Below, piece after piece: positions 44,642-60,761 of a stretch of 64,000 bases of DNA. Below the pieces are notes generated by a model. That model searched no databases, was not told the origin of the DNA, and worked only from the letters and a program-made list of their open reading frames with translations. The DNA comes from an uncultured delta proteobacterium (GTDB lineage Bacteria > Desulfobacterota > SM23-61): the NCBI GenBank assembly GCA_963760605.1, contig CAVXFA010000075.1, forward strand, positions 11,237-75,236, in the 5' to 3' direction. The position numbers were made by a program, and so were the translations under genes. Position 1 is the first letter of the stretch. Each line of letters opens with the position of its first letter.

Positions 44642-44652
44642 AATTCAGACGC

Positions 44653-44755
44653 AATGATGGGATATTGGGGATTGGAAAAAGATCTTTCCGTTATATTTAC
44701 CTATGACGAAAAGGATTATAAGAAGATTGAAGACCTCGAGGTTCGAAAACCATGA
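44653..44755 (+). pseudogene. 3'-terminal remnant of a PIN toxin gene (last about 34 codons), homologous to 58177-58278 and 61297-61398.
   Basis: At the nucleotide level, gatgggatattggggattggaaaaagatctttccgtt...gaggttcgaaaaccatga matches the 3' ends of both full-length copies. It marks the start of the accessory island right after the glcF stop. Confidence 0.7.
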
Positions 44756-44949
44756 CATGCCTTAGCCCGAAAATCCCAAAACAATTCCCGAAACCAATCG
44801 GTAGTTTCCGTTACCAACGCCTCACCAGAATTCTCTTCGCCCAGTCTTGACGTCGCTCGGTAGTTTTCTTCAATAGCGTATTTCCGTACCCTGATCCCAC
44901 CCTGCTGCAATAAGCATGCAAAGAAAATAGGCCTGACCCCGCTCGTGTT

Positions 44950-45051
44950 TTCCTGAAATCCGGGTTCGTTTTGCGAAGAACGATAAGGGATTATTACCGT
45001 CCTGGGGTGGATGGATATTTTATTGCTTTCGATGGAAAAACCAAGGATTAG
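44950..45051 (+). pseudogene. 3'-terminal remnant of the GNAT acetyltransferase cassette gene.
   Basis: At the nucleotide level, ttcctgaaatccgggttcgttttgcgaagaacgataagggattattaccgtcctggggtggatggatattttattgctttcgatggaaaaaccaaggattag is identical to the 3' ends of 58731..59162 and 61843..62274. Confidence 0.7.
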
Positions 45052-45139
45052 TATAAAAGGATCATCTCCGAAATAGTTGGCAAGAGCTTGGAGAATTTTA
45101 AGAGAGAAATAACGTTAATCCTGAAAGCTATATTTAAAG

Positions 45140-45190
45140 GGGACGATTCTATTTATTGCAGTCCTCAATTTCGGAAAATAGAACCGTCCC
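45140..45190 (+). repeat. Hairpin junction element copy H1 (15-bp stem, 21-nt loop; one stem mismatch).
   Basis: The sequence is gggacgattctattt-attgcagtcctcaatttcgga-aaatagaaccgtccc. It is preceded by the conserved arm ...gagaattttaagagagaaataacgttaatcctgaaagctatatttaaagg. Confidence 0.7.
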
Positions 45191-45290
45191 GATTTTCCAC
45201 TCCCTGCCGTCGAACTGACTCAATTTTTAAGTCAGCTTCTGGCCATTAGCCTCTTGCCACTGTACCGGCTTTCCTTTTCTGCCGCTCTAA

Positions 45291-46067
45291 TTACTGTTCT
45301 TTCCCTTCGATGATTTGAATAAAATCCACCTCCATATGCTGGTGATGTTCCACACTACTGGGTAATACCCCCAGCACGCTTAATTGCTGAATGAAGTCGA
45401 TACTCTGCAAATAGAAAGGCCCTTCAGGAATGACAATCCCCCAACCCTGAAACATTTTATGGATATTATCCAAGATCGCAACTCCAAGAGGAAAGGTGTA
45501 ATAAGCAGTGGTGGGATTCCAGTACACCATCTGTTCCTCCTGGGATATTTGCAGAACCAGACCTTGATTGAAATACAACCACAAACCTTGCCACTGATTG
45601 GTTTCCCCCGGCGGCGCAGGAGGAATCTGGTTTATAGACAGGGCGTCTATCTTATACATCAAATAGGTGTTGGGGGTTACAAGGATGGGCAAAATGTCTT
45701 TAAACTGACCATTACAACAAAGCATACTCACTGCGGACTCATTGACCCGAGCCTCACCCTCGCCCTTAAACCTTATGTTGTCTTTGATAAGGGTGTCCCC
45801 TACGATGACGTTACCCGTACTTCCATTATCAGGGTTTTGATTGTCTAGATTAAAGCCTGTATGGCCCCAGGCGTGATTCCCAGTAAGGCCATTATCCCAC
45901 TCTTCATTGAATACGACCTCTCCTGGGCTAAAAGCTTTGCCCACCACCGCGCCGACTTCGTTTCCCAGGGTTCCCTGAAATGCAAGCATAAACTTTATGG
46001 AATCATATTCTTTCTTGGGGAGCGGGGGATAGATCATAAAGTCAACCAGCATCTCACCCCACTCCAT
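45291..46067 (-). CDS. Hypothetical protein (258 aa), divergently transcribed from the Hxs cluster.
   Basis: It is a long clean ORF in an AT-rich island. No domain was recognised. Confidence 0.45.
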   Translation of the reverse strand: MEWGEMLVDFMIYPPLPKKEYDSIKFMLAFQGTLGNEVGAVVGKAFSPGEVVFNEEWDNGLTGNHAWGHTGFNLDNQNPDNGSTGNVIVGDTLIKDNIRFKGEGEARVNESAVSMLCCNGQFKDILPILVTPNTYLMYKIDALSINQIPPAPPGETNQWQGLWLYFNQGLVLQISQEEQMVYWNPTTAYYTFPLGVAILDNIHKMFQGWGIVIPEGPFYLQSIDFIQQLSVLGVLPSSVEHHQHMEVDFIQIIEGKEQ

Positions 46068-46348
46068 TGTCCCATCCGCCTTCTTACTCGCCCCTTTAAG
46101 TTCGATACAGGGAACGACAGCAGAACCATCGAGACCCCTAAAGCTTTTTTTAAAAGATACATCAATCCATTAACTTATATAAAAAAGTAGGGCCAGGGGG
46201 AGTTACGGGAAACGAGTGAGAAACCCGTCATGAAAGAATTTACTAAAAGAGATAATTTTGTTCTTGACATTTTATTTTGTAGGTTTATAATGCATACGGA
46301 ATAAAAGGACCAGTGTAATACATCCTCTTGCGTGGAGCGGGGTGGATT

Positions 46349-46618
46349 ATGAAGAGAATATGGAATAAATTAATTTTCCTGCTGTTTGGAATTCTTTCGC
46401 TCATTGGAATTAGCATCTCACCTTCCTTATCCGCAACGCGGTACACCCAGCAGATTACAGAGGTCAAAAAAACAACCCCACTTTTTTTGCAGCTCGGTAG
46501 TGATATGGGTTCCAGACTGGATAACCAAGGGACTTCATTTGCCCAGCATGAATCTCATTATTCCCACACGTCTCACTATTCTCATTCTTCTCATTACTCT
46601 CATTACTCCCGCTACTAG
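46349..46618 (+). CDS. hxsA: His-Xaa-Ser repeat precursor-like peptide (HxsA-like). It has a hydrophobic leader and a C-terminal (H-x-S)x7 repeat.
   Basis: The C-terminus HESHYSHTSHYSHSSHYSHYSRY is made of seven consecutive His-Xaa-Ser triplets. The N-terminus MKRIWNKLIFLLFGILSLIGISIS is hydrophobic. The gene lies directly upstream of two radical SAM/SPASM enzymes. Confidence 0.7.
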   Translation: MKRIWNKLIFLLFGILSLIGISISPSLSATRYTQQITEVKKTTPLFLQLGSDMGSRLDNQGTSFAQHESHYSHTSHYSHSSHYSHYSRY

Positions 46619-46800
46619 TTTTAAGGAAGGGGGGGCAACGTAATCTGCCAATTCAACCTCTGATGCAGGGCTGAATTGTTACAATTTTCCATCGTATCTG
46701 ATTTGTAACCCACCAGGAAAGAGGGAATTGCGATCTAAATCAGCCAGCTAGAGTGGGCACTTGATTTCTGCCGATTTGGAAAACATTGTGACAGACATGA

Positions 46801-47151
46801 ATGGTTGTTATGAAAGAGCAAAGCAAAACGTTAGAAATACGAGTTAGTAAAGCCCTCTATGATAGAGAAGCTATTATCGCGGCTGCTTACGCACTATCTG
46901 GGTTGTGCGGAATCAAAATCGAACCTGCATCTGAGCAGTTTTTAAAAGTGTCATTAGAACCACTTGAACCCCATAATGATTTAGACCTTTCGGAGTTGGA
47001 GCATAAGTTTACGAATGAGCTAATTGATCAACAACTGAGAATTGATCTTGAGAGACGATATGGCCCAATTCGCCAGCTGATTGTACAACATGCCTTCTCT
47101 CCCCTTGAAAATCTCAAGGCCGAGGTCAAGAAAATTGTCGGTCGTGAGTAG
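46801..47151 (+). CDS. hxsD: HxsD-like accessory protein of the His-Xaa-Ser system (tentative).
   Basis: The 116-aa protein sits between the precursor and the rSAM genes. The assignment rests on this context and a general family resemblance. Confidence 0.45.
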   Translation: MVVMKEQSKTLEIRVSKALYDREAIIAAAYALSGLCGIKIEPASEQFLKVSLEPLEPHNDLDLSELEHKFTNELIDQQLRIDLERRYGPIRQLIVQHAFSPLENLKAEVKKIVGRE

Positions 47152-48610
47152 CCGCTATCTGCTCTTACCCTTCCGATTCTGCCGTTTCCCTGGTAAGCCA
47201 GTTCTTTTGGTTAACGAAGTGGGCGAATACATTTTTTTAGATACAGAAGCTTTCGAGAGGATTATCTCTTACCGTCTTGACCGCAGTGAACCGATATTTC
47301 TGGACTTGAAGGGTAAGCACATCCTCACGGACACGGCTGTCACGCCCGTAATCAACCTCCTTTCTACCAAATATAGGACGAAAAAAGCCTTTCTAAAAAC
47401 CTTTACTGCTCTTCATATGATTGTCGTAACACTTCGTTGTAACCACCACTGTAACTACTGTCATGCTTCAAGCCAAGCAGCAGATAGACGCCATTGGGAT
47501 ATGAACCAAGAGACAGCGGAAAATGTGGTCCGAATTATAATGGAAACACCATCTCCGGTAGTCAAAATAGAATTTCAAGGAGGGGAACCACTTCTTAATT
47601 TCGAGATCGTAAAAACTATTGTCCGGGAAGCAAAAAGGATCAATCGACGAAAGGGTAAAGATCTCTCTTTTGTGCTCTGCACTAATCTTACCCTCCTCGA
47701 TAAGCCTACCTTGACATTCCTCAAGAAAGAAAAAATCCTGGTTTCCACGTCGCTAGATGGACCTAAGGAAATCCATGATCGGCACAGGATTATGCGAGAG
47801 GGAGGAAGTAGTTATGATGAATTCATCCATAAACTTAATTACTGCAAGAGTGTATTGGGTCATGAAAGTGTGTCTGCTCTTATGACTGCTACCAAAGATA
47901 GCCTTCCTAACATACAGTCGATTATAGATGAATATGTCAGACTCAATTTTCAGGGCATCTTTTTGCGAAGCCTTAATCCTTACGGTTATGCACGTACTGA
48001 GGCAAATAGGAAAATCTTAGAATATCAAATGGATGAGTTCGTTGAGGCATATAAAAAAGCCTTACTCTATATAATTAAGGTCAACCAAGAAGGAAGGCGT
48101 CTTGTCGAAAATTACGCCACTGTGCTTCTAACAAAAATTCTTACTCCATTTTCCACGGGCTTTGTGGACTTACAATCTCCCACAGGGGCAGGGATAAGTG
48201 GGGCGGTATATAACCATAATGGGGATGTTTATCCTTCTGATGAATCCAGGATGCTGGCCCAGATGGGTGATCGACGATTCTTTATGGGTAATGTAAATAG
48301 GGATTCATACCTATCCATTTTCAAATCTAATGTGCTACATGAACTGATTAAAACTTCCTGTGTAGAAACGCTACCCGGTTGCCATTCATGCGCTCTGCAA
48401 ACCTATTGTGGCGCCGATCCCGTAAGGAATTATGCTACCCAAGGGAACTTAGTCGGGCACCGCCCAACGAGTGATTTCTGTTTCAAACATAGGGAGATAA
48501 TCAGTTTTTTGTTGGACCTCATCGAGCAGGATAATCCAGATACTATTGACGTTTTCTGGTCATGGATAACTAACCGATCCCTCGCTGAGGTAAAAGGTAG
48601 GAACCAATGA
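47144..48610 (+). CDS. hxsB: Radical SAM/SPASM-domain maturase (HxsB-like; anSME-like). The likely start is the GTG at 47144, overlapping the hxsD stop.
   Basis: The CX3CX2C motif is CNHHCNYC. The C-terminal SPASM-like cysteines are in CHSCALQTYCGADP. The start lies in the same frame as ORF 47081..48610. Confidence 0.75.
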   Translation: MSSRYLLLPFRFCRFPGKPVLLVNEVGEYIFLDTEAFERIISYRLDRSEPIFLDLKGKHILTDTAVTPVINLLSTKYRTKKAFLKTFTALHMIVVTLRCNHHCNYCHASSQAADRRHWDMNQETAENVVRIIMETPSPVVKIEFQGGEPLLNFEIVKTIVREAKRINRRKGKDLSFVLCTNLTLLDKPTLTFLKKEKILVSTSLDGPKEIHDRHRIMREGGSSYDEFIHKLNYCKSVLGHESVSALMTATKDSLPNIQSIIDEYVRLNFQGIFLRSLNPYGYARTEANRKILEYQMDEFVEAYKKALLYIIKVNQEGRRLVENYATVLLTKILTPFSTGFVDLQSPTGAGISGAVYNHNGDVYPSDESRMLAQMGDRRFFMGNVNRDSYLSIFKSNVLHELIKTSCVETLPGCHSCALQTYCGADPVRNYATQGNLVGHRPTSDFCFKHREIISFLLDLIEQDNPDTIDVFWSWITNRSLAEVKGRNQ

Positions 48611-49800
48611 GAGAGTTTACCGGGAAGCCAGTGGGCATACTCAAGCCAATTATGGGGATGGTTACTACAAAGTCGTCCGCCAGGAGGGCACAGCAAGTGC
48701 TTTTAGTGTTCCAGCCACGCAATATAGCCCGAAGGCTATTTTCCCGTGTCTCACCTAGTCGTTACACGGCGGCCTGTATGATTTCTGATCACGGTGGCCT
48801 CCCCTTACAAAAGAACATCCCCCATTTGCTCGATTTGTCAGAGGATAATCTCTTTCAATTGCACGATGGCGACATCGTTAAAATAGAGCCCAGCGGCAGG
48901 GTGACTGTGGTTTATGAAGCTAATTCCTTACACAATACTATATTTTTTACGAACATCTGCAATTGCTCATGCGTCATGTGCTCACAGCCTCCGGCCAAGG
49001 ATTCAGAGGACCTCTTGGAGCAGAACCTGATGCTCATTTCCCTACTGGAAAGGCGCAAGGAAAGACATTTGGGGATAACCGGAGGAGAACCTACTATATT
49101 AGCTGAAAACCTTATAAAGTTTATCCAGACGTGCAGGGCGGAATTGCCCAAAACGTCACTAACTTTACTTACCAATGGTAGAAAACTCCAAGATTTCGAG
49201 TTCGCCAGGGCGCTTGTACTTTCTGGATACCCCCGCTTGTTTATGGAGATACCAGTATATGGAGACAATGATACGGAACATGATTCCATAATGGGTGCAA
49301 GTGGGAGCTTCTACGAGACCATACAAGGTCTCCACAACCTTGCACTCTTAAGTCAACCAGTGGGCCTGCGAACAGTACTCCACAGCATGACCATAAAACG
49401 CTTGTGCCAGTACGCCGAATTTGTCTATCGTAACTTACCATTTGTTGTCCAAGTGGCATTCATGGGAATGGAAACTACCGGAGCAGCTAAGGCGAATCTG
49501 GATTGTTTATGGGTAGATCCATATGATTATCGCCATCAACTCGAGTCTGCTGTCAGGTATCTCAATCAAAGAAAGGTGCCAGTTTCAATCTATAATCATC
49601 AACTCTGTACGCTACCTAAAGATTTATGGCCATTTGCCAGGCGGTCCATTAGTACCTGGAAAGAAACTTTCCTGCCACTTTGCGATGAATGCTACGTGAA
49701 GAACTTCTGTTGTGGTATTTTTGGCACGGGCGGAAGGCCTAGCGCCTTTCTCCGTCCCCTTTTCAAGAATGAGCTGCCGAAAGCGTGGCAAGATAACTAG
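48607..49800 (+). CDS. hxsC: Second radical SAM maturase (HxsC-like), translationally coupled to hxsB (ATGA overlap).
   Basis: The CX3CX2C motif lies within NICNCSCVMC. The C-terminus has a Cys cluster CDECYVKNFCCG. Confidence 0.7.
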   Translation: MREFTGKPVGILKPIMGMVTTKSSARRAQQVLLVFQPRNIARRLFSRVSPSRYTAACMISDHGGLPLQKNIPHLLDLSEDNLFQLHDGDIVKIEPSGRVTVVYEANSLHNTIFFTNICNCSCVMCSQPPAKDSEDLLEQNLMLISLLERRKERHLGITGGEPTILAENLIKFIQTCRAELPKTSLTLLTNGRKLQDFEFARALVLSGYPRLFMEIPVYGDNDTEHDSIMGASGSFYETIQGLHNLALLSQPVGLRTVLHSMTIKRLCQYAEFVYRNLPFVVQVAFMGMETTGAAKANLDCLWVDPYDYRHQLESAVRYLNQRKVPVSIYNHQLCTLPKDLWPFARRSISTWKETFLPLCDECYVKNFCCGIFGTGGRPSAFLRPLFKNELPKAWQDN

Positions 49801-49929
49801 CCATTTTTTATAGCAGTAATTTACAAATTCCGGGCAAATAAATAGTCTTTTCCAAGTATAGACCAAAGAAAAATAAACAAATGAGGCCGATTGGCGGTAA
49901 AACTCCAGGAAAACCGAAAGGCTATATAG

Positions 49930-50109
49930 ATGGCAGAGAAACTCGACCGCAAAGAAATAGTCAGCTTTGAGGAGCTTCTGCTAAGCAATGTTATTGAGCA
50001 GGAGGCCTTGGTCAATTTGCTGGAAGCCAAAGGAGTTATCACAAAAGCCGGCCTGCTCGAAGAAATTAAGAATCTCCGAAATAAGCGCAGAAAACTGAGA
50101 AAAGAATGA
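49930..50109 (+). CDS. Small helical hypothetical protein (59 aa) that is absent from the supplied ORF track because it is under 60 aa.
   Basis: It is a clean ATG..TGA ORF encoding MAEKLDRKEIVSFEELLLSNVIEQEALVNLLEAKGVITKAGLLEEIKNLRNKRRKLRKE, lying 20 nt upstream of the HExxH peptidase gene. Confidence 0.4.
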   Translation: MAEKLDRKEIVSFEELLLSNVIEQEALVNLLEAKGVITKAGLLEEIKNLRNKRRKLRKE

Positions 50110-50129
50110 TAATAAAGGCCTAAGAGGCA

Positions 50130-50537
50130 ATGGAGCTGGATAAGGTTTTTACTGAAGTTGAAATTGAAACCCCGTATTTAGAAAACACCCTCAAGAAGGT
50201 GCTTTCAATCATCAATGGGTATATGGATATTTATACCAACGGATTTGGCTCAATTCACGAAGGTCGAATTTTCGGGAATGAAGGGGTGGTTAGCGAGGCG
50301 GGGGATATTTATTTAGACTCAAAACAATTGCAGAGGCATGACGATGATGTGGCGATGGCGATCATTGCCCACGAGCTTGCTCATTATTATCTTGGCCATC
50401 ACATTAAGTCGGGTAGGGAAGCAGAAAACGAGAAAGATGCTGATGACCTTGCAAAACAATGGGGTTTCAATATTGATAAGATGCGACAAATATTTAGATT
50501 AAGAGGTGTCCAAATAGTTGGCTTGGAGAAAGAATGA
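50130..50537 (+). CDS. ImmA/IrrE-like HExxH zinc metallopeptidase (small).
   Basis: The motif AIIAHELAHYYLGHH (HExxH..H) is present in a protein of 135 aa. Confidence 0.55.
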   Translation: MELDKVFTEVEIETPYLENTLKKVLSIINGYMDIYTNGFGSIHEGRIFGNEGVVSEAGDIYLDSKQLQRHDDDVAMAIIAHELAHYYLGHHIKSGREAENEKDADDLAKQWGFNIDKMRQIFRLRGVQIVGLEKE

Positions 50538-50541
50538 GACA

Positions 50542-51099
50542 AAGATGAAGGCTACAAGAAATCATTTTTTGCGGCTGCTTTTAGCTTTTTTCATACTGCT
50601 CTTTTTCCTACCACTTCAGGCCCAGGAAAAACCGACTCCATGCCCCTCGTTGTCCGTATACTTTTCGCCCAGTCGTGGAAGCACAGAAGCCATCATTAAG
50701 GAATTGGATAATTCTAAAACCTCCGTCCTGGTTCAGGCATTCTCCTTTACCTCTGCTCCTATCGCTAAGGCCCTGCTGAATGCCCACAAACGAGGGGTTA
50801 AGGTCGAAATTATTCTGGACAAAAGCCAAAAGCGGGAGAAATATACTGCCGCTGATTTCTTCGCTAACTCCGGTATTCCGACCAAGATAGACGCAGCCCA
50901 TGCCAAGGCTCATAACAAGGTGATGGTTATTGACGGGGCGACCGTCATCACAGGATCATTCAACTTTACGCGTGCAGCAGAAGAGAAAAACGCCGAGAAT
51001 CTTCTCATCATCAGGGACAAAGCACTGGCCGAGAAGTATACTAAAAACTGGCAGGACCATGCGGGGCATTCAGAGCAGTATGCTGGAAGGGCGCGATAA
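50542..51099 (+). CDS. Secreted phospholipase-D-superfamily nuclease (Nuc-like, HKD motif).
   Basis: A signal peptide is present. The HKD motif lies in AHAKAHNKVMVIDG. The size is typical of Nuc endonucleases. Confidence 0.75.
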   Translation, partial: KMKATRNHFLRLLLAFFILLFFLPLQAQEKPTPCPSLSVYFSPSRGSTEAIIKELDNSKTSVLVQAFSFTSAPIAKALLNAHKRGVKVEIILDKSQKREKYTAADFFANSGIPTKIDAAHAKAHNKVMVIDGATVITGSFNFTRAAEEKNAENLLIIRDKALAEKYTKNWQDHAGHSEQYAGRAR

Positions 51100-51507: not shown

Positions 51508-52383
51508 ATGGACATCACAGAAATCTATGAATTGTATCCTACCCATGATGATTGCCTCGATCACCTTGAAAAAGTTAGGTGGCATGGCACCCCGAAATGT
51601 CCTTACTGTCAATCAAGCAGAACCAGCCCTCTCCCAAAGGAAAAAAGACATCATTGTAATGCTTGTAATACCACATTTAGTGTTACTGTCAAGACCATCT
51701 TTCATCATACCCATTTACCTCTTCAAAAATGGTTTCTGGCTGTTTGCTTAACGCTGAATGCTAAAAAGGGCGTAGCCGCTAGGCAAATGGCCCGTCACGT
51801 TCACGCTAATAAAGATACGGCTTGGCGGATCAACATGAAGATCCGAGAGGCAATGTCTGAAAGAGAACAAAGAGAGCTTTTAACTGGCCTTGTGGAGTGC
51901 GATGAAACGTACATTGGAGGAAAGCCACGGCCTGGGAGTGGACCACATACAAGAGGACGCGGAACAAAGAAAACTCCCGTTGTCGCATTGGCCAAAAGAG
52001 GGGTAAACAATATAAGAGCTGAGGTATTTAAAAACCGGAAGAGATTGAGCGGTAAAAACCTTAAAATGTTAGTCCGAAAAAACGTGGACACCGAGAACGC
52101 AACATTGATTACCGATGAATATAAAGGATACATTGGGATTCAAACTCTTATGCCCCATAAGATCGTTGACCATAGCGTTTGGTATGTCAATGGCGATGCT
52201 CACACCAACACCGTTGAATCTTTTTGGGCTCTCCTAAAACGGGGCATCGTTGGACAGTATCATAAAGTCAGTATGAAGCACTTACCAAAGTACGTTGATG
52301 AGTTTTCTTGTCGTTGGAACCATAGAGAGGACGAAAACCTGTGGGCAACAACTCTACAAAGAGCGCTGGAGGTGAGAGCATGA
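51508..52383 (+). CDS. IS1595-family transposase (N-terminal zinc ribbon plus DDE domain).
   Basis: The zinc ribbon is CPYCQS...CNACNT. The DDE_Tnp_IS1595-like core includes ECDETYIGGK and DEFSCRWNHRE. Confidence 0.8.
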   Translation: MDITEIYELYPTHDDCLDHLEKVRWHGTPKCPYCQSSRTSPLPKEKRHHCNACNTTFSVTVKTIFHHTHLPLQKWFLAVCLTLNAKKGVAARQMARHVHANKDTAWRINMKIREAMSEREQRELLTGLVECDETYIGGKPRPGSGPHTRGRGTKKTPVVALAKRGVNNIRAEVFKNRKRLSGKNLKMLVRKNVDTENATLITDEYKGYIGIQTLMPHKIVDHSVWYVNGDAHTNTVESFWALLKRGIVGQYHKVSMKHLPKYVDEFSCRWNHREDENLWATTLQRALEVRA

Positions 52384-53297
52384 CAAACGATAACCTACAG
52401 ACAATCCATCCAGGAAGTAAACCTGGGGAAATAATAATAGGGGATACTCGGATTCCGTGTTTCGTTTTAGAAGATGGAACAAGGATTTTGTCTGAACTCG
52501 GCGTAACTAAAGCAATGAAATCAAGAAGTGGAGCTTCAAAACGACGCAAAAAGGTGGAGCAAGAAGAGGGGCGTGCCCATTTACCGGTTTTTATGTCCTC
52601 AAATAACCTTGAACCTTTTATTTCTAATGAGTTACGAGCGGGGCTCATTAATCCAATAAAATATCGCATCGGGAAAAGAATCGCCCAGGGGTATCCAGCA
52701 GAATTACTACCGAAAATATGTGAGGTTTGGTTATCAGCCCGAGATGAGAAAAAGCTTCGTAAGGATCAATTAAGAAAATGTAAACAAGCTGAAATCTTAA
52801 TGCGAGCATTGGCCCATGTTGGGATAATTGCACTGGTTGATGAGGCTACAAATTATCAAGAAGTAAGGGACAAGATTGCACTCCAAAAGATTCTTGATAA
52901 ATATCTCTTAGCAGAATACGCAAAGTGGGCAAAGAGATTTCCAGACGAGTTTTATGAGTTAATGTTCAAATTTAAAGGATGGCAATGGAAAGGGATGTCG
53001 GTCAATCGACCAAGTGTGGTAGGAAAATATACTAACGATTTGGTATATGAGCGCTTAGCTCCGGGACTTTTGACGGAGCTAAGAAAACTAAATCCGCCAG
53101 ACGAACAAGGCAGAAGAAAATCAAAACATCAACAATGGCTTACGGAAGATATTGGACATCCCGCACTTCAAAAGCACTTAGCCATTTTGATTGCATTCAT
53201 GAGGGCGGCCCCCAATTGGACGATATTCCATCGAAACGTAGAAAGAGCATTACCAAAACTTGGGGAAACAATTCCAATGGCTTTGGATGAGGATTAA
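52380..53297 (+). CDS. P63C-domain-like protein (tentative; phage-associated family).
   Basis: The ATG overlaps the transposase stop (ATGA). The family resemblance is recalled from memory and is low-confidence. Confidence 0.35.
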   Translation: MTNDNLQTIHPGSKPGEIIIGDTRIPCFVLEDGTRILSELGVTKAMKSRSGASKRRKKVEQEEGRAHLPVFMSSNNLEPFISNELRAGLINPIKYRIGKRIAQGYPAELLPKICEVWLSARDEKKLRKDQLRKCKQAEILMRALAHVGIIALVDEATNYQEVRDKIALQKILDKYLLAEYAKWAKRFPDEFYELMFKFKGWQWKGMSVNRPSVVGKYTNDLVYERLAPGLLTELRKLNPPDEQGRRKSKHQQWLTEDIGHPALQKHLAILIAFMRAAPNWTIFHRNVERALPKLGETIPMALDED

Positions 53298-53300
53298 AAA

Positions 53301-54179
53301 TTGACTACTTTGAAGAAAATGACCAACCTTCGCCCCTTTTTCCACACAAATCGTGGTTTGCTCTATAATACAGATTGTTTCAATCTTTTTGCGTCGCTCA
53401 AGGACGAAACCCTGGACTGCATCTTTGCCGATCCGCCTTTTAATTTGGGAAAGGATTATGGAAACGGTTTTGTCAAAGATGATTTAAAGAGAGATGACTA
53501 TATAGAATGGTGTTTTTCTTGGCTCAATGAATTTGTTCGCCTTATCAAGCCAGGGGGAGCGGTATTTTTATACACGCTTCCACAGTGGGGTTATCATCTA
53601 GCTTTGCACTTAGAAAAATCTAAAATGACCTTTCGGCATTGGATTGCTCTTTCAATGAAGGGAACTTTCCCGAGAGGAAAGAAACTATATCCGGCTCATT
53701 ATGCCCTGCTATATTTTACCAAAGGAATGCCCAAGACATTTAACCGCGTCCGTTTGCCTATTCCCAAATGCCGACACTGCGGAAAGGATATCAAGGATTA
53801 TGGTGGACACAGAAAATATCTTAATCCTCTTGGCCTAAATCTGACGGACTTTTGGGACGACACGGCACCGGCTAGGCATCAAAAGTTCAAATCTCGTTGG
53901 CATATAAACGAACTCAAACCTATGATTCCATCAAGGTGTATAGAAATCTCAACTACTCCCGGAGAAATCGTAATGGATCCGTTTGGTGGTGGAGGATCAA
54001 CTTACGAATCGGCACAGCGGCTTGACCGTTATTGGATTGGAACGGAAATTGGAGATTGCGCAATAATTGAAGAAAGACTTCGAAGAAATTTTTCAAACCT
54101 AGAGAATGATGTGCCCAAGAAGCTAATTAATATCCTACAGAAAGGAAATCGAAAGTTTTCGATTCCACTATCCAAATGA
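53301..54179 (+). CDS. Beta-class DNA methyltransferase (N4-cytosine or N6-adenine), the M subunit of a type II R-M system.
   Basis: The N-terminal DPPF motif (FADPPFNLG) and the C-terminal FxGxG motif (MDPFGGGGST) give a beta-group order. This is the class to which M.BglII and M.BamHI belong. Confidence 0.8.
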   Translation: MTTLKKMTNLRPFFHTNRGLLYNTDCFNLFASLKDETLDCIFADPPFNLGKDYGNGFVKDDLKRDDYIEWCFSWLNEFVRLIKPGGAVFLYTLPQWGYHLALHLEKSKMTFRHWIALSMKGTFPRGKKLYPAHYALLYFTKGMPKTFNRVRLPIPKCRHCGKDIKDYGGHRKYLNPLGLNLTDFWDDTAPARHQKFKSRWHINELKPMIPSRCIEISTTPGEIVMDPFGGGGSTYESAQRLDRYWIGTEIGDCAIIEERLRRNFSNLENDVPKKLINILQKGNRKFSIPLSK

Positions 54180-54724
54180 CAAAAATAGTTGAGGAAGAGT
54201 CCTATAATGGGGCTAAAGAGAGGATTAAAAGACTTGGTCTTGATCCTCTCCTAAGTGAAATCCGTTCAATCATAACCGATTTTAGCCTTCTGGTTAAGGA
54301 ATCAAGGGATGCGAACGGTGGCGCAGCAGTTCGCAAGTTGATGGATGCCCAATTTCAGAAATCAAAGGGATGGTCAAAAAATCAAACGGGTGATGTGGAT
54401 TGGACTAAATGTCAGGTTGTAAATGGTACAAAGGTATGCATTGGTGTTGAGATTCAATTTTCGGCTAGGAGTGATCTATTGGTCATTGATTTGATACACT
54501 TACGGAAAGCTATCGTTAAAGGGCAGATAGATGTTGGCATACTCGTAGTTCCAAGCAATAAACTAGGGGTCTTTCTTACAGATCGGGGTCCTAAAATGGC
54601 AGATGCCAAAAGGCATGTAGTCGAAGCTAAAGCCGAAGATCTTCCTCTGATTCTGATAGCTATTGAACATGATGGCCCTGGCCCGCCGTTGGCCAAGCAG
54701 TTCAAGAGAACATCTGCGGTATAG
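54176..54724 (+). CDS. Type II restriction endonuclease of the BglII/BamHI fold.
   Basis: IGVEIQFSA matches the BglII active-site block LVEVQFSN (the E-x-Q variant of PD-(D/E)xK). The start overlaps the methyltransferase stop. Confidence 0.65.
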   Translation: MTKIVEEESYNGAKERIKRLGLDPLLSEIRSIITDFSLLVKESRDANGGAAVRKLMDAQFQKSKGWSKNQTGDVDWTKCQVVNGTKVCIGVEIQFSARSDLLVIDLIHLRKAIVKGQIDVGILVVPSNKLGVFLTDRGPKMADAKRHVVEAKAEDLPLILIAIEHDGPGPPLAKQFKRTSAV

Positions 54725-54780
54725 ATAATGACTACCTTAAAATGGGACATTCCGTTAATTTTTTCAAGGAGGATTCCACT

Positions 54781-57078
54781 ATGCCACTTCTCCCTGGAAT
54801 TGTTCAAACGTTGTTTGAGTTAGAGGATAATCCAATTCGGTTCGAGCGTGTGTGCCTCGATTTGTACAAAGACGCCGAGGGAGTCGAATTGGTTCCTACT
54901 TCCCGAACCTGGGATTTAGGCCGAGACGGGCGAAGCATTTCGATTTCGAAAAATGGGACTCTTTTAGGGATCCTTTGTGCAACATTGTCTATCGATATAG
55001 ATGGTAAAGTCGAGGCAGATATTCTTCGCCTCGCCGAAACAACAAATACTAGAGCAATAATATATTCTACATCCCGATCGTTGACGGAACACGCTTGTAA
55101 TGTGCTCGAGGCTAAAATTCGGAAATTGTACCCAGCGGTTAAATCCGTCCGTATTTTGGGTCAAATTCAACTTGTTGCTCTAGCAGAACGCTTCGAAAAT
55201 ACAATTCGTAAACATTATGCGGCAGAGATTAAAATTAGCGAGCAAGCTCTTCTGACTGTTCCCAATGAGCCAGAAAATATCGGGCTTCGTCTTGCCCTAA
55301 TTACTCAAACGGGCGATGATGCTCGAATCCTCCGAACCGAACTAACCAGGCGCCTTGTATTAGAAAGTCTTCATAGCCGAGGCTCCCAGAGCGCCGGTAG
55401 TCTTGCCGTGGCGATTTCAGGGCAACTACACCTTTCACGATCAATGACAACTAGTTACATAACTATTATTATATCATCACTAATCGAAGAGGGACTGGTA
55501 TCGAGTGACAAGGATGGCACAATATGCATTACTCCAAACGGCATAACATTTATAAGTGGGGTCCCAAAAGAGGCCAGTGCGAAATTGTTAGAAGGCCGCA
55601 CCGCAATTCGCAGAGAAATAAAAAGGCTGTCTGGGCATACGCTTACAGAGGAACAGTTTGAACGTCTTTGGGATTACTTCCAAGACGGACTTTCGGAAGT
55701 CTTTTATTCCCATGGAGCTGCTATTGTTCGCATGGTAGGTTCCTTGATCACAGGGGAACGAGGCAAACCAGAGCCAAAAACCTATTTGCTCCTCGAAGAA
55801 GTTGGCAACCACATCGGGTCCTTATTCTCTGACCCCATCCAGGGCGATGAGGTACGGCAGGCCATAATCGACATGTTCTCCGAAAAGGAAAGCGAAGCTT
55901 TTAATTGGCTAACGCAGATTTGCAGCGTATATGTGATGATGTGTTCACTAGGATTTGAGGCTTTAAGTTCTGAACAAATTACAAGAGTTCTCAGAAACTT
56001 CCGTCTTGTCCCAGATACTGACATCATTATTTCATTATTATGCGAGGGAGAAAATAACCATAAAGAGGTTTCACATATTGTTAATGGATGGAGACTCTTG
56101 GGCGGAAAAATTCTAATGTCAACCCCTGTCTTGGAGGAAACGGCTTTTCACGCTTGGATTAGTGAACACGATTATGTCCAAATGTGGGAACAGCTTGATC
56201 AAATATCAGATTCAGAAGCCTATCATTTAATTGAAAATGCATTCGTTCGCTCGTTTAGAATTTTATCAAGAGAAAATACGAGTAGGAGGTACTGGAACCA
56301 ATACATCAACCAGTATCGCGGTGAATCAGAACGTGATTACAGTCGTGTAATGCTAATTTTAAGAGAAGATTATGGGTTTGATAGGCTACCTGATGCCGAG
56401 GAGAATTACCAAAATTTTCCCAATAAAGTCAGGATTTTTTTGGCTCAGAAATTGGCCGAAAATATTGGAATAAGTTTTGAAGATTTAAGTTTTAAGATGC
56501 ATGACAAAAGTAGACGTGATGGATCTCTTTTTGGCTCCGTGCTTAGAGCAAGGGATGCATCACGACGGTCAGCGATACAATCTACTACGATTATTCTTTC
56601 CTCTTCGAGATTACTAAAACAGGCAGATCAAGCCTTCCGAAGTGAGCTTGGTGAGCCAGATGCAGTAGTCTCTACGGCCGCAGTGGGGTGTCTGTTGACT
56701 TTAACTCCGGGAGTACTTATGGGGATGGGGACCCTTCGTGAGGTACTTTTCGACTTAGGTTTAGCCACACGGCTAACGCCCATGCAGAGATATGCTTATC
56801 GGCTGATCACAGCATCCGGAGAATTTGACCTTCCTTGGTCCAGACGGGTAACTCTACAGAGGGAATTAGGCGAAAGACTCCTTTCGGACGCAAGAGCAAC
56901 TGGCGACCCTGTGCCTAAGGTCATTGAAAGGGTAATGAAATCTGAAGATCCGGAATTTTCCGTAAAGATGATTGTAAAAGCCTTGGACAATATGGCAGTC
57001 ACGCCCAAAACTGAAAAGGAGCTGCAAAGACTTAGAAAGGAAGTCAAAATATTGGAAGAGAAATTAAAAGCCAGGTAA
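54781..57078 (+). CDS. Large hypothetical protein (about 765 aa) with an N-terminal Mrr-cat-like (restriction-endonuclease-like) motif.
   Basis: FERVCLDLYKDAEGVELVPTSRTWDLGRDGRSIS fits the Mrr_cat pattern (F-E-x-L..G..V..T..D.G.D). The AGGAGG RBS lies 7 nt before the ATG at 54781. No P-loop was seen. The remainder is helical and of unknown function. Confidence 0.5.
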   Translation: MPLLPGIVQTLFELEDNPIRFERVCLDLYKDAEGVELVPTSRTWDLGRDGRSISISKNGTLLGILCATLSIDIDGKVEADILRLAETTNTRAIIYSTSRSLTEHACNVLEAKIRKLYPAVKSVRILGQIQLVALAERFENTIRKHYAAEIKISEQALLTVPNEPENIGLRLALITQTGDDARILRTELTRRLVLESLHSRGSQSAGSLAVAISGQLHLSRSMTTSYITIIISSLIEEGLVSSDKDGTICITPNGITFISGVPKEASAKLLEGRTAIRREIKRLSGHTLTEEQFERLWDYFQDGLSEVFYSHGAAIVRMVGSLITGERGKPEPKTYLLLEEVGNHIGSLFSDPIQGDEVRQAIIDMFSEKESEAFNWLTQICSVYVMMCSLGFEALSSEQITRVLRNFRLVPDTDIIISLLCEGENNHKEVSHIVNGWRLLGGKILMSTPVLEETAFHAWISEHDYVQMWEQLDQISDSEAYHLIENAFVRSFRILSRENTSRRYWNQYINQYRGESERDYSRVMLILREDYGFDRLPDAEENYQNFPNKVRIFLAQKLAENIGISFEDLSFKMHDKSRRDGSLFGSVLRARDASRRSAIQSTTIILSSSRLLKQADQAFRSELGEPDAVVSTAAVGCLLTLTPGVLMGMGTLREVLFDLGLATRLTPMQRYAYRLITASGEFDLPWSRRVTLQRELGERLLSDARATGDPVPKVIERVMKSEDPEFSVKMIVKALDNMAVTPKTEKELQRLRKEVKILEEKLKAR

Positions 57079-57413
57079 ATACCGACAAATACAAGTGGGA
57101 AGGAAATGAGCGCTTATCACTTTCAATCCGTAATTTTCAACGCCCCAACATAGTTCCCCTTATTGATTTGTAACTGTTACCAAAGGTCGCGTTTAAAAAG
57201 CTAGGCGTCAAAACCCGGGTTTTTTTCAACAAGCATTCGTGAAGGGTTGAGTAGTCTCTCACTGCGGAGGGCAGGGATTAAGGTTAAGCCACCAAAAGCT
57301 TTTCAACTTTCACTTTGTCCGGGCTGATAAAAACTGTCTTCTGGTGGGAAAAGGTCACGAAGCCGGGCCCGGCCCCTTTAGGTTTATGTAGATTCTTGAC
57401 GGGCAGGGTAAAG

Positions 57414-57468
57414 GGGACGGTCCTATTTATTGCAGTCCTCAATTTCAAAAAATTGACCCGCCCCGATT
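57414..57468 (+). repeat. Hairpin junction element copy H2 (degenerate variant).
   Basis: The sequence gggacggtcctattt-attgcagtcctcaatttc-aaaaaattgacccgcccc shares the 5' stem and loop start. The 3' half is diverged. Confidence 0.5.
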
Positions 57469-57578
57469 TTCACCAGTTTTCACGGGGGGCGTCGGGCAGC
57501 CGATTTCCTACCGCGGCCACTCATATTTTAGAAATTTATGTTCCTCCGACAATTTCCTTTTAAAGGAATAATATTTAA

Positions 57579-57607
57579 TTGACTACTTTTAAATAAAGTA
57601 GTAATAT
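57579..57607 (+). promoter_or_regulatory. Sigma70-like promoter with an embedded operator palindrome for the AbrB-PIN TA cassette.
   Basis: The -35 box is TTGACT and the -10 box is TAATAT, with a 17-nt spacer. The inverted repeat ACTACTTTtaaatAAAGTAGT spans the spacer. Confidence 0.55.
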
Positions 57608-57641
57608 AAAATGAATGTCAGAAAAAGGAGGTGGATTTGCC

Positions 57642-57875
57642 ATGCAGACTGTCAAGGTATTGCCCAAAGGGCAAATTACCCTTCCCAAACAAGTTAGAAA
57701 AAAGCTTAAGATTGGGGTGGGAGATCGGTTGCTCCTCGAGGAAGACGAAGAAAAAATCGTTCTGAAAAAAGGGAAAACGATATTCGATTATATCGGAAGC
57801 CTGCCCAGTCTGGGAATGTCTACTGAAAAGATGCGCGAAAAAGCTGTCGGGGAGGCAGCCAAGGAAAATGACTAA
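57642..57875 (+). CDS. AbrB/SpoVT-type antitoxin (VapB-like).
   Basis: The swapped-hairpin DNA-binding N-terminus is MQTVKVLPKGQITLPKQVRKKL. The RBS aaggagg is present. The gene overlaps the PIN gene by 8 nt. Confidence 0.75.
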   Translation: MQTVKVLPKGQITLPKQVRKKLKIGVGDRLLLEEDEEKIVLKKGKTIFDYIGSLPSLGMSTEKMREKAVGEAAKEND

Positions 57876-58278
57876 AGCGTTCATTGACACCAGCGTGATT
57901 CTCAGGCTGCTGATCAAGGATGACCGGGCAAAAGCCAGATCTAGCGAAAAACTGTTGAAAGAAGCAGAAAAGCGGGGACTGATCCTGTATTTATTGCCGG
58001 TAGCCATAATGGAGACAGTATGGGTGCTGGAAAAAATTTATAAATTCGAGAGAAAAACCATAAGGGAAATCATAGAAGCCATCCTTAATACCCCGCAGTT
58101 GAAGATTGAGATGGAGACCGTTTTTAGGAAGGCCATAAGGAACTACGAAGAAAAGAATATAAAATTTGCGGATGCCATGATGGGATACTGGGGATTGGAA
58201 AAAGATCTTTCCGTTATGTTTACCTATGACGAAAAGGATTATAAGAGGATTGAAGGCCTCGAGGTTCGAAGACCATGA
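57868..58278 (+). CDS. vapC: PIN-domain toxin VapC (copy 1).
   Basis: The PIN motif FIDTSVIL with acidic residues is present. The gene is paired with the upstream antitoxin. Confidence 0.8.
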   Translation: MTKAFIDTSVILRLLIKDDRAKARSSEKLLKEAEKRGLILYLLPVAIMETVWVLEKIYKFERKTIREIIEAILNTPQLKIEMETVFRKAIRNYEEKNIKFADAMMGYWGLEKDLSVMFTYDEKDYKRIEGLEVRRP

Positions 58279-58546
58279 CCTGCCTGAGCCCGAAAATCCC
58301 AAAGCAATTCCCGAAACCAATCGGTAGTTTCCGTTACCAACGCCTCACCAGAATTCTCTTCGCCCAGTCTTGACGTCGCTCGGTAGTTTTCTTCAATGGC
58401 ATATTTCCGTAACCTCTCCCCTCCCCCCCGGAATAAGCAGGCAAAGAAAATAGAGCTGACCCCGCTGGTGGTTGGCAAAAGCTTGGAAAATTTTAGGAGA
58501 GAGAAAACGTTAATCATGAAAGCTATATTTAAAGGGGACGTTAAAG

Positions 58547-58597
58547 GGGACGGTTCTGTTTATTGCAGTCCTCAATTTCGGAAAATAGTACCGCCCC
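58547..58597 (+). repeat. Hairpin junction element copy H3.
   Basis: The sequence is gggacggttctgttt-attgcagtcctcaatttcgga-aaatagtaccgcccc. It is preceded by the conserved arm ...cttggaaaattttaggagagagaaaacgttaatcatgaaagctatatttaaagg. Confidence 0.7.
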
Positions 58598-58730
58598 AAT
58601 TTTCCAAAGGTCAAACTTTCTCTCAGCGTCCCAGCCTGGCCGCGTACGGGACAAAGCAAACAAGTCGGATTTCCTTGGACTCCTGCAGGCCTGCGGGACA
58701 AAAGGAAATTTCCAATCGGGCATTTTGCAA

Positions 58731-59162
58731 ATGAAAATCGAGCTACGAGAAGACCTCGCTCCGGATCCGGATTTCTATTACCATCAACAATTCAAAATCT
58801 ATGACGAACCCTATTTGATTTGGGGCCGAGAAACATGGAAGGCAGCGCTCAGCGCATGCAGCGTCTATCAGATCGAAGCAGATGGGAGATACGCCGGAGA
58901 CCTGTTATTGGAGGACCAGAGGAAAGGCACCAAGTACATCCTTGACTTCGGCCTTTTGCCCGAGTATCAAGGGAAGGGGGTGGGGAAAGCGGTTGTTGAG
59001 CAGTTCAAGAAATTGGGCGGGAAATTCACTGCTGTCACACGAAAGGAAACTCTTGGTTTCTTCCTGAAATCCGGGTTCGTTTTGCGAAGAACGATAAGGG
59101 ATTATTACCGTCCTGGGGTGGATGGATATTTTATTGCTTTCGATGGAAAAACCAAGGATTAG
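58731..59162 (+). CDS. GNAT-family N-acetyltransferase (copy 1).
   Basis: Motif A is QGKGVGKAVVEQF. The gene is 143 codons long. Confidence 0.7.
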   Translation: MKIELREDLAPDPDFYYHQQFKIYDEPYLIWGRETWKAALSACSVYQIEADGRYAGDLLLEDQRKGTKYILDFGLLPEYQGKGVGKAVVEQFKKLGGKFTAVTRKETLGFFLKSGFVLRRTIRDYYRPGVDGYFIAFDGKTKD

Positions 59163-59277
59163 TATAAAAGGATCATCTCCGAAATAGTTGGCAAGAGCTT
59201 GGAGAATTTTAAGAGAGAAAAAACGTTAGTCATGAAAGCTATAAGCCTTCGGCCTGATGACCTTGATTTTGTTTAAA

Positions 59278-59328
59278 GGGGGCGGGTCTATTTATTGCAG
59301 TCCTCAATTTCGGAAAATAGAACCGTCC
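59278..59328 (+). repeat. Hairpin junction element copy H4.
   Basis: The sequence is ggggcgggtctattt-attgcagtcctcaatttcgga-aaatagaaccgtccc. The conserved arm upstream carries a 35-bp insertion. Confidence 0.65.
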
Positions 59329-59605
59329 CGATTTTCCACTGGCCATTAACCTCTTGTCACTGTGCCGGAGAAAGAACAACCGAATCCGTGTCCCCCTCAT
59401 ACCCATTATTTCATTCCCGTCGAAAACCCGCGAATGCGCGGGAAACCAGCCATAAAAAGAACGGCCGTTTAAAAATTTCTCCCCGCCAATGGATCAAAAT
59501 CGAGGGATTTTATCAAATGCAGAGCCGTCACTCCATAGCCCTTTTCACACCTTACACAAAAAATCAATAATCAAGACTTGAATCCGGATATGAACATTAA
59601 TCTAA

Positions 59606-60019
59606 TTATGGACGTGCCTCAAGGGGTAACTTCGCGAGAATCTGATTATAAATTTCGTGACTGATCTGAAGGGCCTCTTCAGCTTCTTGGTTTGTAGGTT
59701 CTTCCGTCCCTCCGGGGTAGCGGAATTTCCAAGCGTACTCAGTGAGGGGAGCGGCCTTATCAACTAAATCCTTCAAAGTGGGCTCTATTTTGACACATTG
59801 TCGCCCGATTTCCTCCAGACTATGGGTTTTGCGAAACGGAATATCATGCCAGGCCAGAAATCCCTTAAGCGCCTTTTCGATTGCCTGCTGGCAGTGAAAA
59901 ACCACATCTTCAAGCAGTGGAGGCGCCGCCGAAAGTCCGTGTTCAGCACTCCTTAGGTCCTTCTGGGCGTTAACAAGCCAACCGCGAGTGTCTTCCATGC
60001 GAACAGGATCAGGCTGCAT
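59606..60019 (-). CDS. HEPN-domain protein (toxin of a HEPN/MNT pair).
   Basis: The motif HCQQAIEKALKGFLAWHDIPFRKTHSLEEI matches the HEPN signature. The likely start MQPDP at 60019 overlaps the MNT stop by 11 nt. Confidence 0.7.
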   Translation of the reverse strand: MQPDPVRMEDTRGWLVNAQKDLRSAEHGLSAAPPLLEDVVFHCQQAIEKALKGFLAWHDIPFRKTHSLEEIGRQCVKIEPTLKDLVDKAAPLTEYAWKFRYPGGTEEPTNQEAEEALQISHEIYNQILAKLPLEARP

Positions 60020-60727: not shown

Positions 60728-60761
60728 AAAGCCAATGTCAGAAAAAGGAGGCGGATTTGCC

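Follow-up and report, generated by a model that had tools for sequence, protein, structure and literature searches.

The closest experimentally described system to the locus treated here is HxsABCD (HXS) of Escherichia coli, an anti-phage system (Li et al., Nat Commun 2026; PMC13128918), with which we compare a four-gene hxs operon at positions 46349-49800 of a 64,000-nucleotide stretch of DNA from an uncultured delta proteobacterium (contig CAVXFA010000075.1), the whole of which is referred to as the window. The E. coli operon, hxsD-hxsB-hxsC-hxsA, was discovered during a search for viperin homologues and restricts 110 of 113 coliphages with adsorption intact and no abortive infection; it delays genome entry of T7, and escape mutations were found in the ejectosome proteins gp15 and gp16 (PMC13128918). 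All four genes are needed, as are the radical S-adenosylmethionine (SAM) and second-cluster Cys pairs of HxsB and HxsC, Y23 and D61/R65 of HxsD and, in the effector HxsA, every HxS repeat, the signal peptide, the peptidoglycan-binding domain and residues 23-47 (PMC13128918). HxsA is processed at its N-terminus in dependence on HxsBCD, and a modification of +8 Da, whose chemistry is unresolved, has been mapped to its last repeat, SHRSS; neither the first Ser nor the His nor the last Ser of this motif can be dispensed with (PMC13128918). The protein acts in the periplasm, blocks phage DNA entry and binds DNA in vitro, its basic repeat residues being proposed as a DNA-binding array for electrostatic DNA capture, and alternative modes of action are listed by the authors as well (PMC13128918). 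HxsC binds HxsD, and HxsC-HxsD was the only complex detected in pull-downs (PMC13128918). According to an HxsA-based survey, 99.7% of the systems occur in Pseudomonadota and 99.6% have the order D-B-C-A (PMC13128918). No ribosomally synthesised and post-translationally modified peptide (RiPP), RiPP recognition element (RRE) or leader is mentioned in that paper, and an earlier one had treated Hxs as a putative RiPP system (PMC9062424). An earlier note on this DNA, made from its letters, took the family to be experimentally uncharacterised, a statement that the work in E. coli has made outdated.

In the window, the operon consists of four consecutive open reading frames (ORFs) on the + strand in the order hxsA-hxsD-hxsB-hxsC (A-D-B-C). 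The earlier note had reported these ORFs together with seven H-x-S triplets and the motifs CNHHCNYC and CNCSCVMC, all of which are present:

46349-46618, + strand: hxsA, 89 amino acids, short His-Xaa-Ser repeat effector or precursor, HxsA2-like
46801-47151, + strand: hxsD, accessory protein of 116 amino acids
47144-48610, + strand: hxsB, radical SAM maturase of 488 amino acids with a likely GTG start and a predicted RRE-like N-terminal domain
48607-49800, + strand: hxsC, radical SAM maturase of 397 amino acids

The four genes form an intact and self-contained hxs system, which has an effector of the short, HxsA2-like type and is located in an island of defence and mobile-element genes. We read it as a short-effector phage-defence operon with E. 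coli-like maturation and an E. coli-like block of DNA entry, and assign this reading a probability of roughly 70%. The record of the locus changes accordingly from an orphan natural-product cluster to an anti-phage-type HXS module, three of whose four genes are recognised by standard models.

The evidence from the maturation proteins is the most direct. The NCBIfam equivalog models are matched by HxsB (TIGR03978, 586.5 bits against a cut-off of 370, with the match covering positions 1-466 of 466), by HxsC (TIGR03977, 349.8 against 267.9 bits) and by HxsD (TIGR03976, 67.7 against 50 bits), and the HxsD product additionally has a precomputed match to Pfam PF27806 (HxsD) in a public protein collection. 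With these cut-offs passed, the HxsABCD architecture proposed in the earlier note and its assignment of both radical SAM enzymes are borne out. Both HxsB and HxsC contain the Pfam domains Radical_SAM and Fer4_12, and the following cysteine motifs were read in the sequence, the last of them having escaped the earlier note:

47438-47461, + strand: CX3CX2C motif of HxsB (CNHHCNYC)
48380-48409, + strand: C-terminal CX2CX5C motif of HxsB
48958-48981, + strand: CX3CX2C motif of HxsC (CNCSCVMC)
49681-49710, + strand: C-terminal CX2CX5C motif of HxsC

The residues tested in E. coli can be followed into these proteins. C99, C103, C106, C413 and C416 of HxsB correspond to C94, C98, C101, C399 and C402 of the E. 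coli enzyme, and C118, C122, C125, C359 and C362 of HxsC to C101, C105, C108, C342 and C345. As a check of the numbering, a plasmid locus of Klebsiella and a chromosomal one of E. coli were compared with the paper; their HxsC proteins are identical (WP_000005560.1), and the residue positions agree with the published ones (PMC13128918). In HxsD, D76 and R80 correspond to D61 and R65 of the E. coli motif LLNDYxLRE, which reads ELIDQQLRID here, and both residues are invariant in a multiple alignment of eight HxsD sequences. Every Cys, Asp and Arg whose function was tested in the E. coli enzymes is thus conserved, and of the LYW motif of E. coli HxsD, which reads AYA here, the Tyr is kept and the Leu and Trp are not. 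The SPASM-type cysteines that the earlier note ascribed to the first radical SAM enzyme are confirmed in part: the CX2CX5C motif belongs to five conserved C-terminal residues (Cys406, 413, 416, 422 and 446; pattern C-x6-C-x2-C-x5-C-x23-C), while the CX9-15GX4C part of the seven-Cys SPASM motif is absent from HxsB and Pfam SPASM (PF13186) scores 17.1 bits, below its gathering score of 21.5. The HxsB C-terminus is a SPASM-derived or partial SPASM region.

HxsA carries the most distinctive feature of the locus. Its C-terminus, HESHYSHTSHYSHSSHYSHYSRY, comprises seven consecutive H-x-S triplets (residues 67-87), for which the probability of chance occurrence is approximately 1e-20 per position, assuming typical frequencies of about 2% for H and 6% for S. 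The repeat is kept in homologues of just 28-59% identity, with invariant H and S columns in the alignment with 15 short HxsA sequences; it is therefore not a product of chance, nor one of recent DNA slippage, because the 9-nucleotide period of the DNA is only 70% self-matching. The features of the gene and its upstream region are as follows:

46264..46291, + strand: sigma-70-type promoter-like site TTGACA-16 nucleotides-TATAAT, 58 nucleotides upstream of the hxsA ATG (consensus match only)
46349..46435, + strand: predicted Sec-type signal peptide or signal anchor, HxsA residues 1-29, MKRIWNK + LIFLLFGILSLIGISI + SPSLSA
46472..46498, + strand: conserved motif TTPLFLQLG, HxsA residues 42-50, between signal peptide and repeats, candidate maturase recognition sequence
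46547..46609, + strand: seven tandem His-x-Ser triplets with x = E, Y, T, Y, S, Y, Y, followed by Arg-Tyr-stop

The N-terminus consists of a basic n-region, a 16-residue hydrophobic core and SLSA, and a segment of the same Met-basic-hydrophobic kind is common to all short HxsA sequences aligned. Its Kyte-Doolittle maximum (15-residue window) is 2.73 at residues 9-23, compared with 1.37 in E. coli HxsA. The hydrophobic leader of the earlier note has the appearance of a signal peptide of the Sec type or of a membrane anchor and not of a RiPP leader, although both its cleavage and the position of the cleavage are predictions from sequence. Between this segment and the repeats, L45 and L47 are invariant across 16 short HxsA sequences, and the motif has counterparts in TPLYLQLG of Thermodesulfobacteriota loci, LVLEQ of Bacteroidales and LVIAP / VPFYIA of Nostoc and E. 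coli. We infer that TPLxLxLG is the maturase recognition sequence on which HxsB would dock; the counterpart region of the E. coli protein, residues 23-47, is required for defence.

A possible reader of this motif is found at the other end of the pair. The model of HxsB residues 1-99 (predicted local distance difference test score, pLDDT, 79.6) has a beta-beta-beta-alpha-alpha topology and superposes on TigE (8vpo) and on lasso-peptide RREs, so that the modelled domain resembles an RRE. The closest solved relative of HxsB is CteB (5wgg), the RRE-bearing maturase of SCIFF (E 2e-25, residues 94-426), the core also aligning with anSME, and several radical SAM/SPASM maturase families align across residues 110-451 or beyond (ORF numbering). 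HxsB appears to carry a RiPP-type recognition domain that was not discussed in the E. coli paper, and a RiPP-like recognition step in Hxs maturation is plausible on the basis of the model. The AlphaFold2 model of HxsD (pLDDT 87.4) shows a beta-alpha-beta-beta unit with a long helical hairpin, and no RRE match was found for it. A natural HxsD-HxsB fusion of 613 amino acids (P0115; PF27806 plus Radical_SAM) hints that HxsD also works closely with HxsB.

Taken as a mechanism, the phage-defence reading would proceed as follows. Transcription of hxsA from the putative strong promoter would yield an 89-residue protein with an N-terminal signal peptide or anchor, the TPLxLxLG motif and the (His-x-Ser)x7 tail. 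In the cytoplasm, HxsB, with its RRE-like domain, radical SAM core and partial SPASM cluster, would recognise HxsA through the N-terminal domain and, together with a complex of HxsC and HxsD, modify the tail covalently by radical SAM chemistry, presumably, as in E. coli, at the last H-x-S repeat. Matured HxsA would then be exported across the inner membrane, or tethered in it by its very hydrophobic N-terminus, and would interfere there with the entry of the phage genome, as HxsA does in E. coli. Four elements of this scheme are carried over from the E. coli literature: the defence phenotype, the +8 Da modification, the periplasmic action and the HxsC-HxsD complex.

A direct comparison with the E. 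coli system shows how much of it is shared. The four protein families, both CX3CX2C motifs, both C-terminal Cys pairs, the HxsD D61/R65 counterparts and the overlapping genes are the same, and in both systems HxsA starts with a signal peptide and continues with a hydrophobic motif and tandem HxS repeats. E. coli HxsA (211 amino acids) contains, in order, a signal peptide, the LVIAP/VPFYIA stretch, HRSHSSHRSHSSHRSS, a Ser/Gly-rich linker and a C-terminal peptidoglycan-binding domain, with approximately 135 residues beyond the repeats, whereas the HxsA of the window (89 amino acids) lacks the linker and the peptidoglycan-binding domain and corresponds to the N-terminal module only. Further differences are the gene order (A-D-B-C as opposed to D-B-C-A), the repeats (seven with Tyr-rich x, as opposed to five with R, S, R, S, R) and the host (Thermodesulfobacteriota-like, as opposed to Pseudomonadota). 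The last triplet aligns with the +8 Da site as SHYSR against SHRSS, its first Ser and His being kept and its last Ser replaced by Arg; most short HxsA sequences have SHYSS here, and a few have G at the final position of the motif. Closer in layout is the locus on plasmid p057_G of Nostoc sp. C057, annotated by PGAP as hxsA2-hxsD-hxsB-hxsC, which has the identical gene order. Its HxsA is short as well (96 amino acids: signal peptide, LVIAP motif, six HxS repeats, HYSSSR at the C-terminus), and its HxsB is 45% identical to that of the window. From the HxsA2 type as modelled (NF038296) the HxsA of the window differs in lacking basic x residues, in ending with HYSRY and in its score below the cut-off. 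Because relatives have the same short effector, the A-D-B-C order and the PGAP name hxsA2, the locus is a typical, ordinary member of a catalogued and experimentally unstudied short-effector variant.

The distribution of the system was followed through HxsB, since a word-indexed search for HxsA relatives gave only 10 matches and the HxsB-anchored loci (numbered with the prefix L) were far more informative; the 89-residue HxsA sequence itself is absent from a collection of 15 billion proteins. HxsB relatives with 58-79% identity occur in Thermodesulfobacteriota, Desulfobaccales, Desulfomonile, Syntrophales and Nitrospirota, all closer than Nostoc, so that the window probably stems from this group as well. 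A scan of species-representative genomes yielded 30 loci, the majority in Bacteroidales and others in Nitrospirota, Cyanobacteriota, one bacterium of the Candidate Phyla Radiation (CPR) and one archaeon of the Methanosarcinales. In 26 of them, an HxS-repeat ORF is found on the same strand at most 5 kb from hxsB, the remaining four being cut by contig ends; it measures 73-154 amino acids in 25 of the 26 and approximately 200 in the Cyanobacteriota locus L026, and nearly all of these ORFs end in H-Y-S-S-R, with or without a final Y. Over all other loci examined, the HxS-repeat peptide stands alongside paired radical SAM genes in 34 of 38, so that the co-occurrence for which the earlier note had proposed a search is found across phyla. 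A short effector is present in 34 other loci, and the order A-D-B-C in eight (L025, L032-L037 and L039). The six metagenome loci of the closest clade and L025 all have this order, an HxsA of 81-98 amino acids and a conserved TPLYLQLG, and A, D, B and C are the only genes conserved beside each other in these seven. Gene callers had called no gene at the hxsA position in L031 (211-510), L032 (4287-4553) and L036 (4359-4628); hxsA is often uncalled in this way, which means that a survey relying on annotated HxsA will miss part of the systems outside Pseudomonadota.

Several loci vary the theme. Two hxsA paralogues are present in L035 (4068-4313 and 4353-4613), L014 (7386-7649 and 8810-9082), L018 and L028 (7549-7950 and 7951-8208), and the cyanobacterial, CPR and archaeal loci (L026, L028 and L029) have far longer arrays of up to 46 repeats with x = Ala, Gly or Ser. 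In the close relatives L025 (5166-5321) and L033 (1856-2152), the repeats are degenerate (HWQ HWS HRD HRS HY(W)A HYA HRS(A) HYS HYD); Ser often gives way to other residues while His stays at its regular distance, and the one constant triplet is the last H-Y-S, which would fit a single modification site of critical importance. Throughout the family, His and Ser recur at fixed spacing, with another small residue sometimes in place of Ser, and the terminal H-Y-S is kept in nearly every locus. The comparison thereby defines a minimal conserved HxsA, in which a signal peptide is followed by just a short hydrophobic motif and by HxS repeats with H-Y-S at their end, and such short peptides could be easier substrates for solving the +8 Da chemistry. 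Bacteroidales-type HxsB genes with 47-49% identity to that of the window are also found on six viral-classified IMG/VR contigs (L041-L046), and some short-HxsA systems may be carried by prophages or other mobile elements.

Against the phage-defence reading, a number of points must be weighed. HxsA reaches no curated HxsA model: the scores are 39.5 bits against 48 for HxsA2 (NF038296), 25.9 against 55 for HxsA4, 23.9 against 121.65 for HxsA (TIGR03979) and 17.3 against 65 for HxsA3, although 13 of the 16 aligned short HxsA sequences match the HxsA2 model at E<=1e-3. The protein ends two residues after the repeats and has no Pfam match to a peptidoglycan-binding domain, the domain whose mutation abolished defence in E. 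coli. Its x residues (E, Y, T, Y, S, Y, Y) are not basic, and the charge of the tail at pH 7 is +0.37 compared with +3.2 in E. coli HxsA, so that the proposed electrostatic DNA capture is weakly supported here. The residue after the last repeat is Arg, where E. coli has the essential Ser of SHRSS. The enzymes are just 30% (HxsB) and 32% (HxsC) identical to the tested ones of the Klebsiella/E. coli type, and BLAST found no similarity between the HxsD of the window and that of E. coli. Support from defence databases is indirect, as PADLOC 2.0 contains no Hxs model. In assigning a defence role to short-HxsA systems and to this lineage, we reason by analogy with E. coli, and its function would have to transfer to an effector that is short, non-basic and without an anchor.

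Positive charge and the peptidoglycan anchor, both stressed in the E. coli study, are not conserved family-wide, which means that the electrostatic DNA-capture model may not generalise. A broader proposal follows this line: short HxsA2-like effectors, which lack the peptidoglycan anchor and basic repeat residues and of which the one in the window has a Tyr-rich tail without the terminal Ser, might not work by capturing DNA electrostatically, their tail chemistry could give a different product and mode (for example a plug tethered in the inner membrane at the pore through which phage DNA exits, cooperation with a secreted nuclease or even a non-defence role), and the unifying feature would be the RRE-like domain of HxsB together with TPLxLxLG. 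We regard this as a tentative idea that deserves some weight without being the probable one. If true, the core Hxs module would be far more widespread than the published 99.7% in Pseudomonadota, extending to Bacteroidota, Nitrospirota, Thermodesulfobacteriota, Cyanobacteriota, CPR bacteria and archaea.

The natural-product explanation favoured in the earlier note takes HxsA for a secreted or exported RiPP (a bacteriocin, for instance, or a peptide used in signalling), in whose His/Tyr/Ser-rich tail HxsB and HxsC would form crosslinks, e.g. a cyclophane or ether-type link, and which would act on other cells. The substrate is indeed small (89 amino acids) with a repetitive C-terminal core, and HxsB, beside its predicted RRE-like domain and its relationship to CteB in the PDB, is related to the PapB, SCIFF, QhpD, YhhB, XyeB and GrrM maturase families (E 1e-15 to 5e-43). 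Cyclophane chemistry is known in the YhhB, XyeB and FxsB families, and the Tyr-rich x positions would suit it. Hxs has, moreover, already been treated as a putative RiPP system (PMC9062424). However, the seven close loci share no gene for a transporter, a leader peptidase or immunity next to the four genes, which makes a secreted product less likely; the predicted N-terminus of HxsA is a Sec-type signal and not a RiPP leader, the homologous module of E. coli is part of a cell-wall-anchored defence effector (PMC13128918), and the island is rich in defence genes. We therefore consider a secreted natural product unlikely, and the part of the earlier claim that survives is peptide maturation with a plausible RiPP-like recognition step. 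In the comparison with RRE-bearing radical SAM/SPASM maturases, the HxsB core aligns with CteB, the PapB family model gives 147.6 bits and the modelled N-terminal domain superposes on TigE, whereas HxsB stays far below the cut-offs of these families (340 for PapB), has five C-terminal Cys instead of seven, works with a second radical SAM enzyme, HxsC, and with HxsD, and has a substrate with a predicted Sec signal, the E. coli Hxs product being a protein effector and not a small secreted peptide. Prokaryotic viperins (pVip) share with the Hxs enzymes the radical SAM superfamily and a role in defence, but they make chain-terminating 3'-deoxy-3',4'-didehydro (ddh) nucleotides in the cytoplasm, while the Hxs enzymes modify a ribosomal protein that acts outside it. 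There is no homology beyond the shared radical SAM core, to which the weak pVip matches of PADLOC to the enzymes (45.5 and 27.7 bits) are confined.

Alternatively, the operon could belong to the Hxs defence family and its short, membrane-proximal effector work differently, either as a plug or sensor that is tethered in the inner membrane at the exit of the ejectosome or in cooperation with a neighbouring secreted nuclease that degrades DNA stalled in the periplasm. This would suit an HxsA without a peptidoglycan-binding domain and basic x residues whose hydrophobic core is longer and stronger than that of E. coli, and alternative modes of action are listed by the E. coli authors themselves (PMC13128918). 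A PLD-family nuclease with a signal-peptide-like N-terminus is encoded two genes after hxsC, and SNase/thermonuclease genes adjoin hxsC in Desulfomonile tiedjei and on the Nostoc plasmid; a secreted nuclease might thus cooperate with the DNA-entry block. Since a nuclease neighbour is present in only about 4-5 of roughly 40 loci, and its family and position differ among them, we hold this variant to be doubtful, much as the natural product. A periplasmic His-rich peptide that binds or buffers metal, its affinity tuned by radical SAM modification and its role unrelated to phage, would make use of the seven regularly spaced His in the 21-residue tail and of the predicted export signal, and would suit the anaerobic, metal-rich lifestyle of the host lineage. 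It is very improbable, because no metal transporter, metalloregulator or metalloenzyme gene is linked to the locus or its relatives, the repeats are needed for phage defence in the sole tested homologue (PMC13128918) and the distribution follows mobile islands and viral contigs.

Returning to the operon itself, its layout is compact. The open frame of hxsB spans 47081-48610, and the GTG at 47144 is the likely start because exactly this 488-residue protein is present in the public collection (P0001). This start overlaps the hxsD stop by 8 nucleotides, a D/B overlap that also occurs in relatives, and the hxsB/hxsC junction is a 4-nucleotide ATGA overlap. The promoter-like site matches the consensus in 12 of 12 positions and is the sole perfect site in 45900-50300, and a GGAG/GGGTGG ribosome-binding region precedes the hxsA ATG. 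Between hxsA and hxsD, which are 182 nucleotides apart, an attenuator or terminator was considered and rejected: the 194-nucleotide stretch 46612-46805 folds no better than shuffled sequences (z +1.69), and no terminator-like site was found on the + strand. The operon was recovered identically in an independent Logan assembly (L031) and is therefore not an assembly artefact. Divergent from hxsA lies an ORF of 258 amino acids (45291-46067, - strand) with no match in Pfam, NCBIfam or PADLOC; its 90% cluster includes a metagenomic member of 729 amino acids, and no counterpart was found in related hxs loci.

The island starts at approximately 44650, directly after a glcF-like gene. As stated in the earlier note, it is poor in GC: the GC content falls from about 0.55 to about 0.43 at approximately 45 kb and does not recover before the window ends. 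Its genes are mobile and defence-rich in character; no tRNA or Rfam landmarks marking its boundaries were found. Besides the hxs genes, duplicated PIN and GNAT genes and a HEPN/nucleotidyltransferase pair, it contains:

50130-50537, + strand: HExxH protein (putative peptidase) of 135 amino acids (HELAHYYLGHH), with weak matches to Peptidase_M48, SprT and PADLOC Lit
50518-51099, + strand: PLD-family (NucT/DrmC-like) nuclease with a signal-peptide-like N-terminus, two genes after hxsC
51508-52383, + strand: IS1595-family transposase (DDE_Tnp_IS1595 plus zinc ribbon), overlapping the start of the P63C-domain gene
52341-53297, + strand: P63C-domain protein of 318 amino acids
53301-54179, + strand: type II DNA methyltransferase (PADLOC MTase_II, 310 bits)
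54176-54724, + strand: BglII-like restriction endonuclease of 182 amino acids (Pfam PF09195, 32.6 bits), overlapping the methyltransferase gene

The transposase and the P63C protein are markers of mobile or phage-derived DNA. The methyltransferase and the BglII-like endonuclease, 3.5 kb downstream of hxsC, probably form a complete restriction-modification system, and the 778-amino-acid ORF that follows them (54742-57078) matches no family. In relatives, the surroundings of hxs include RadC, GIY-YIG, PDDEXK, recombinase and SNase genes, and a mobile defence module fits both these settings and the content of the island. A conserved protease or nuclease partner was rejected as a candidate, as the neighbours in the window, a 59-amino-acid protein, the HExxH protein and the PLD nuclease, have no consistent counterparts beside hxs elsewhere. 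The SNase/thermonuclease genes mentioned above lie at 7756-8433 of L037 (D. tiedjei) and at 6488-7024, - strand, of L039 (Nostoc plasmid), and another PLD gene is located near hxs in L010 (3435-4331). M48-like peptidases are found within a few kb of hxs in L032 (at the start of the locus; 2907-3503, - strand) and L036 (10853-11494), with differing position and orientation.

The island is also structured by repeats. An element of approximately 65 nucleotides, TAAAGGGGACGGTTCTATTTATTGCAGTCCTCAATTTCGGAAAATAGAACCGTCCCGATTTTC, occurs in eight copies on the + strand (45124-45197, 57398-57471, 58531-58604, 59263-59336, 60500-60573, 61643-61716, 62347-62420 and 63802-63875), with a spacing of 700-1450 nucleotides in the right-hand part of the island. 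The element forms a long hairpin with bulges (free energy as DNA -11.6 to -20.9 kcal/mol, z -3 to -6.9), belongs to no Rfam family and has only two exact matches in the metagenome collection (L047 and L048). Identity with integron attC sites was rejected because of the arm order (GTT...AAC, not RYYYAAC...GTTRRRY), the mixed gene orientations and the missing Rfam family. A tandem duplication of approximately 3.1 kb (57400-60500 and 60500-63600, 84-94% identity) carries the PIN (57868-58278 and 60988-61398) and GNAT (58563-59162 and 61837-62274) genes. A partial third copy of this unit (44648-45199) follows the glcF-like gene directly and makes up the left edge of the low-GC island, which places a 12.2-kb segment with the hxs, PLD nuclease, IS1595 and restriction-modification genes between copies of the 3.1-kb unit.

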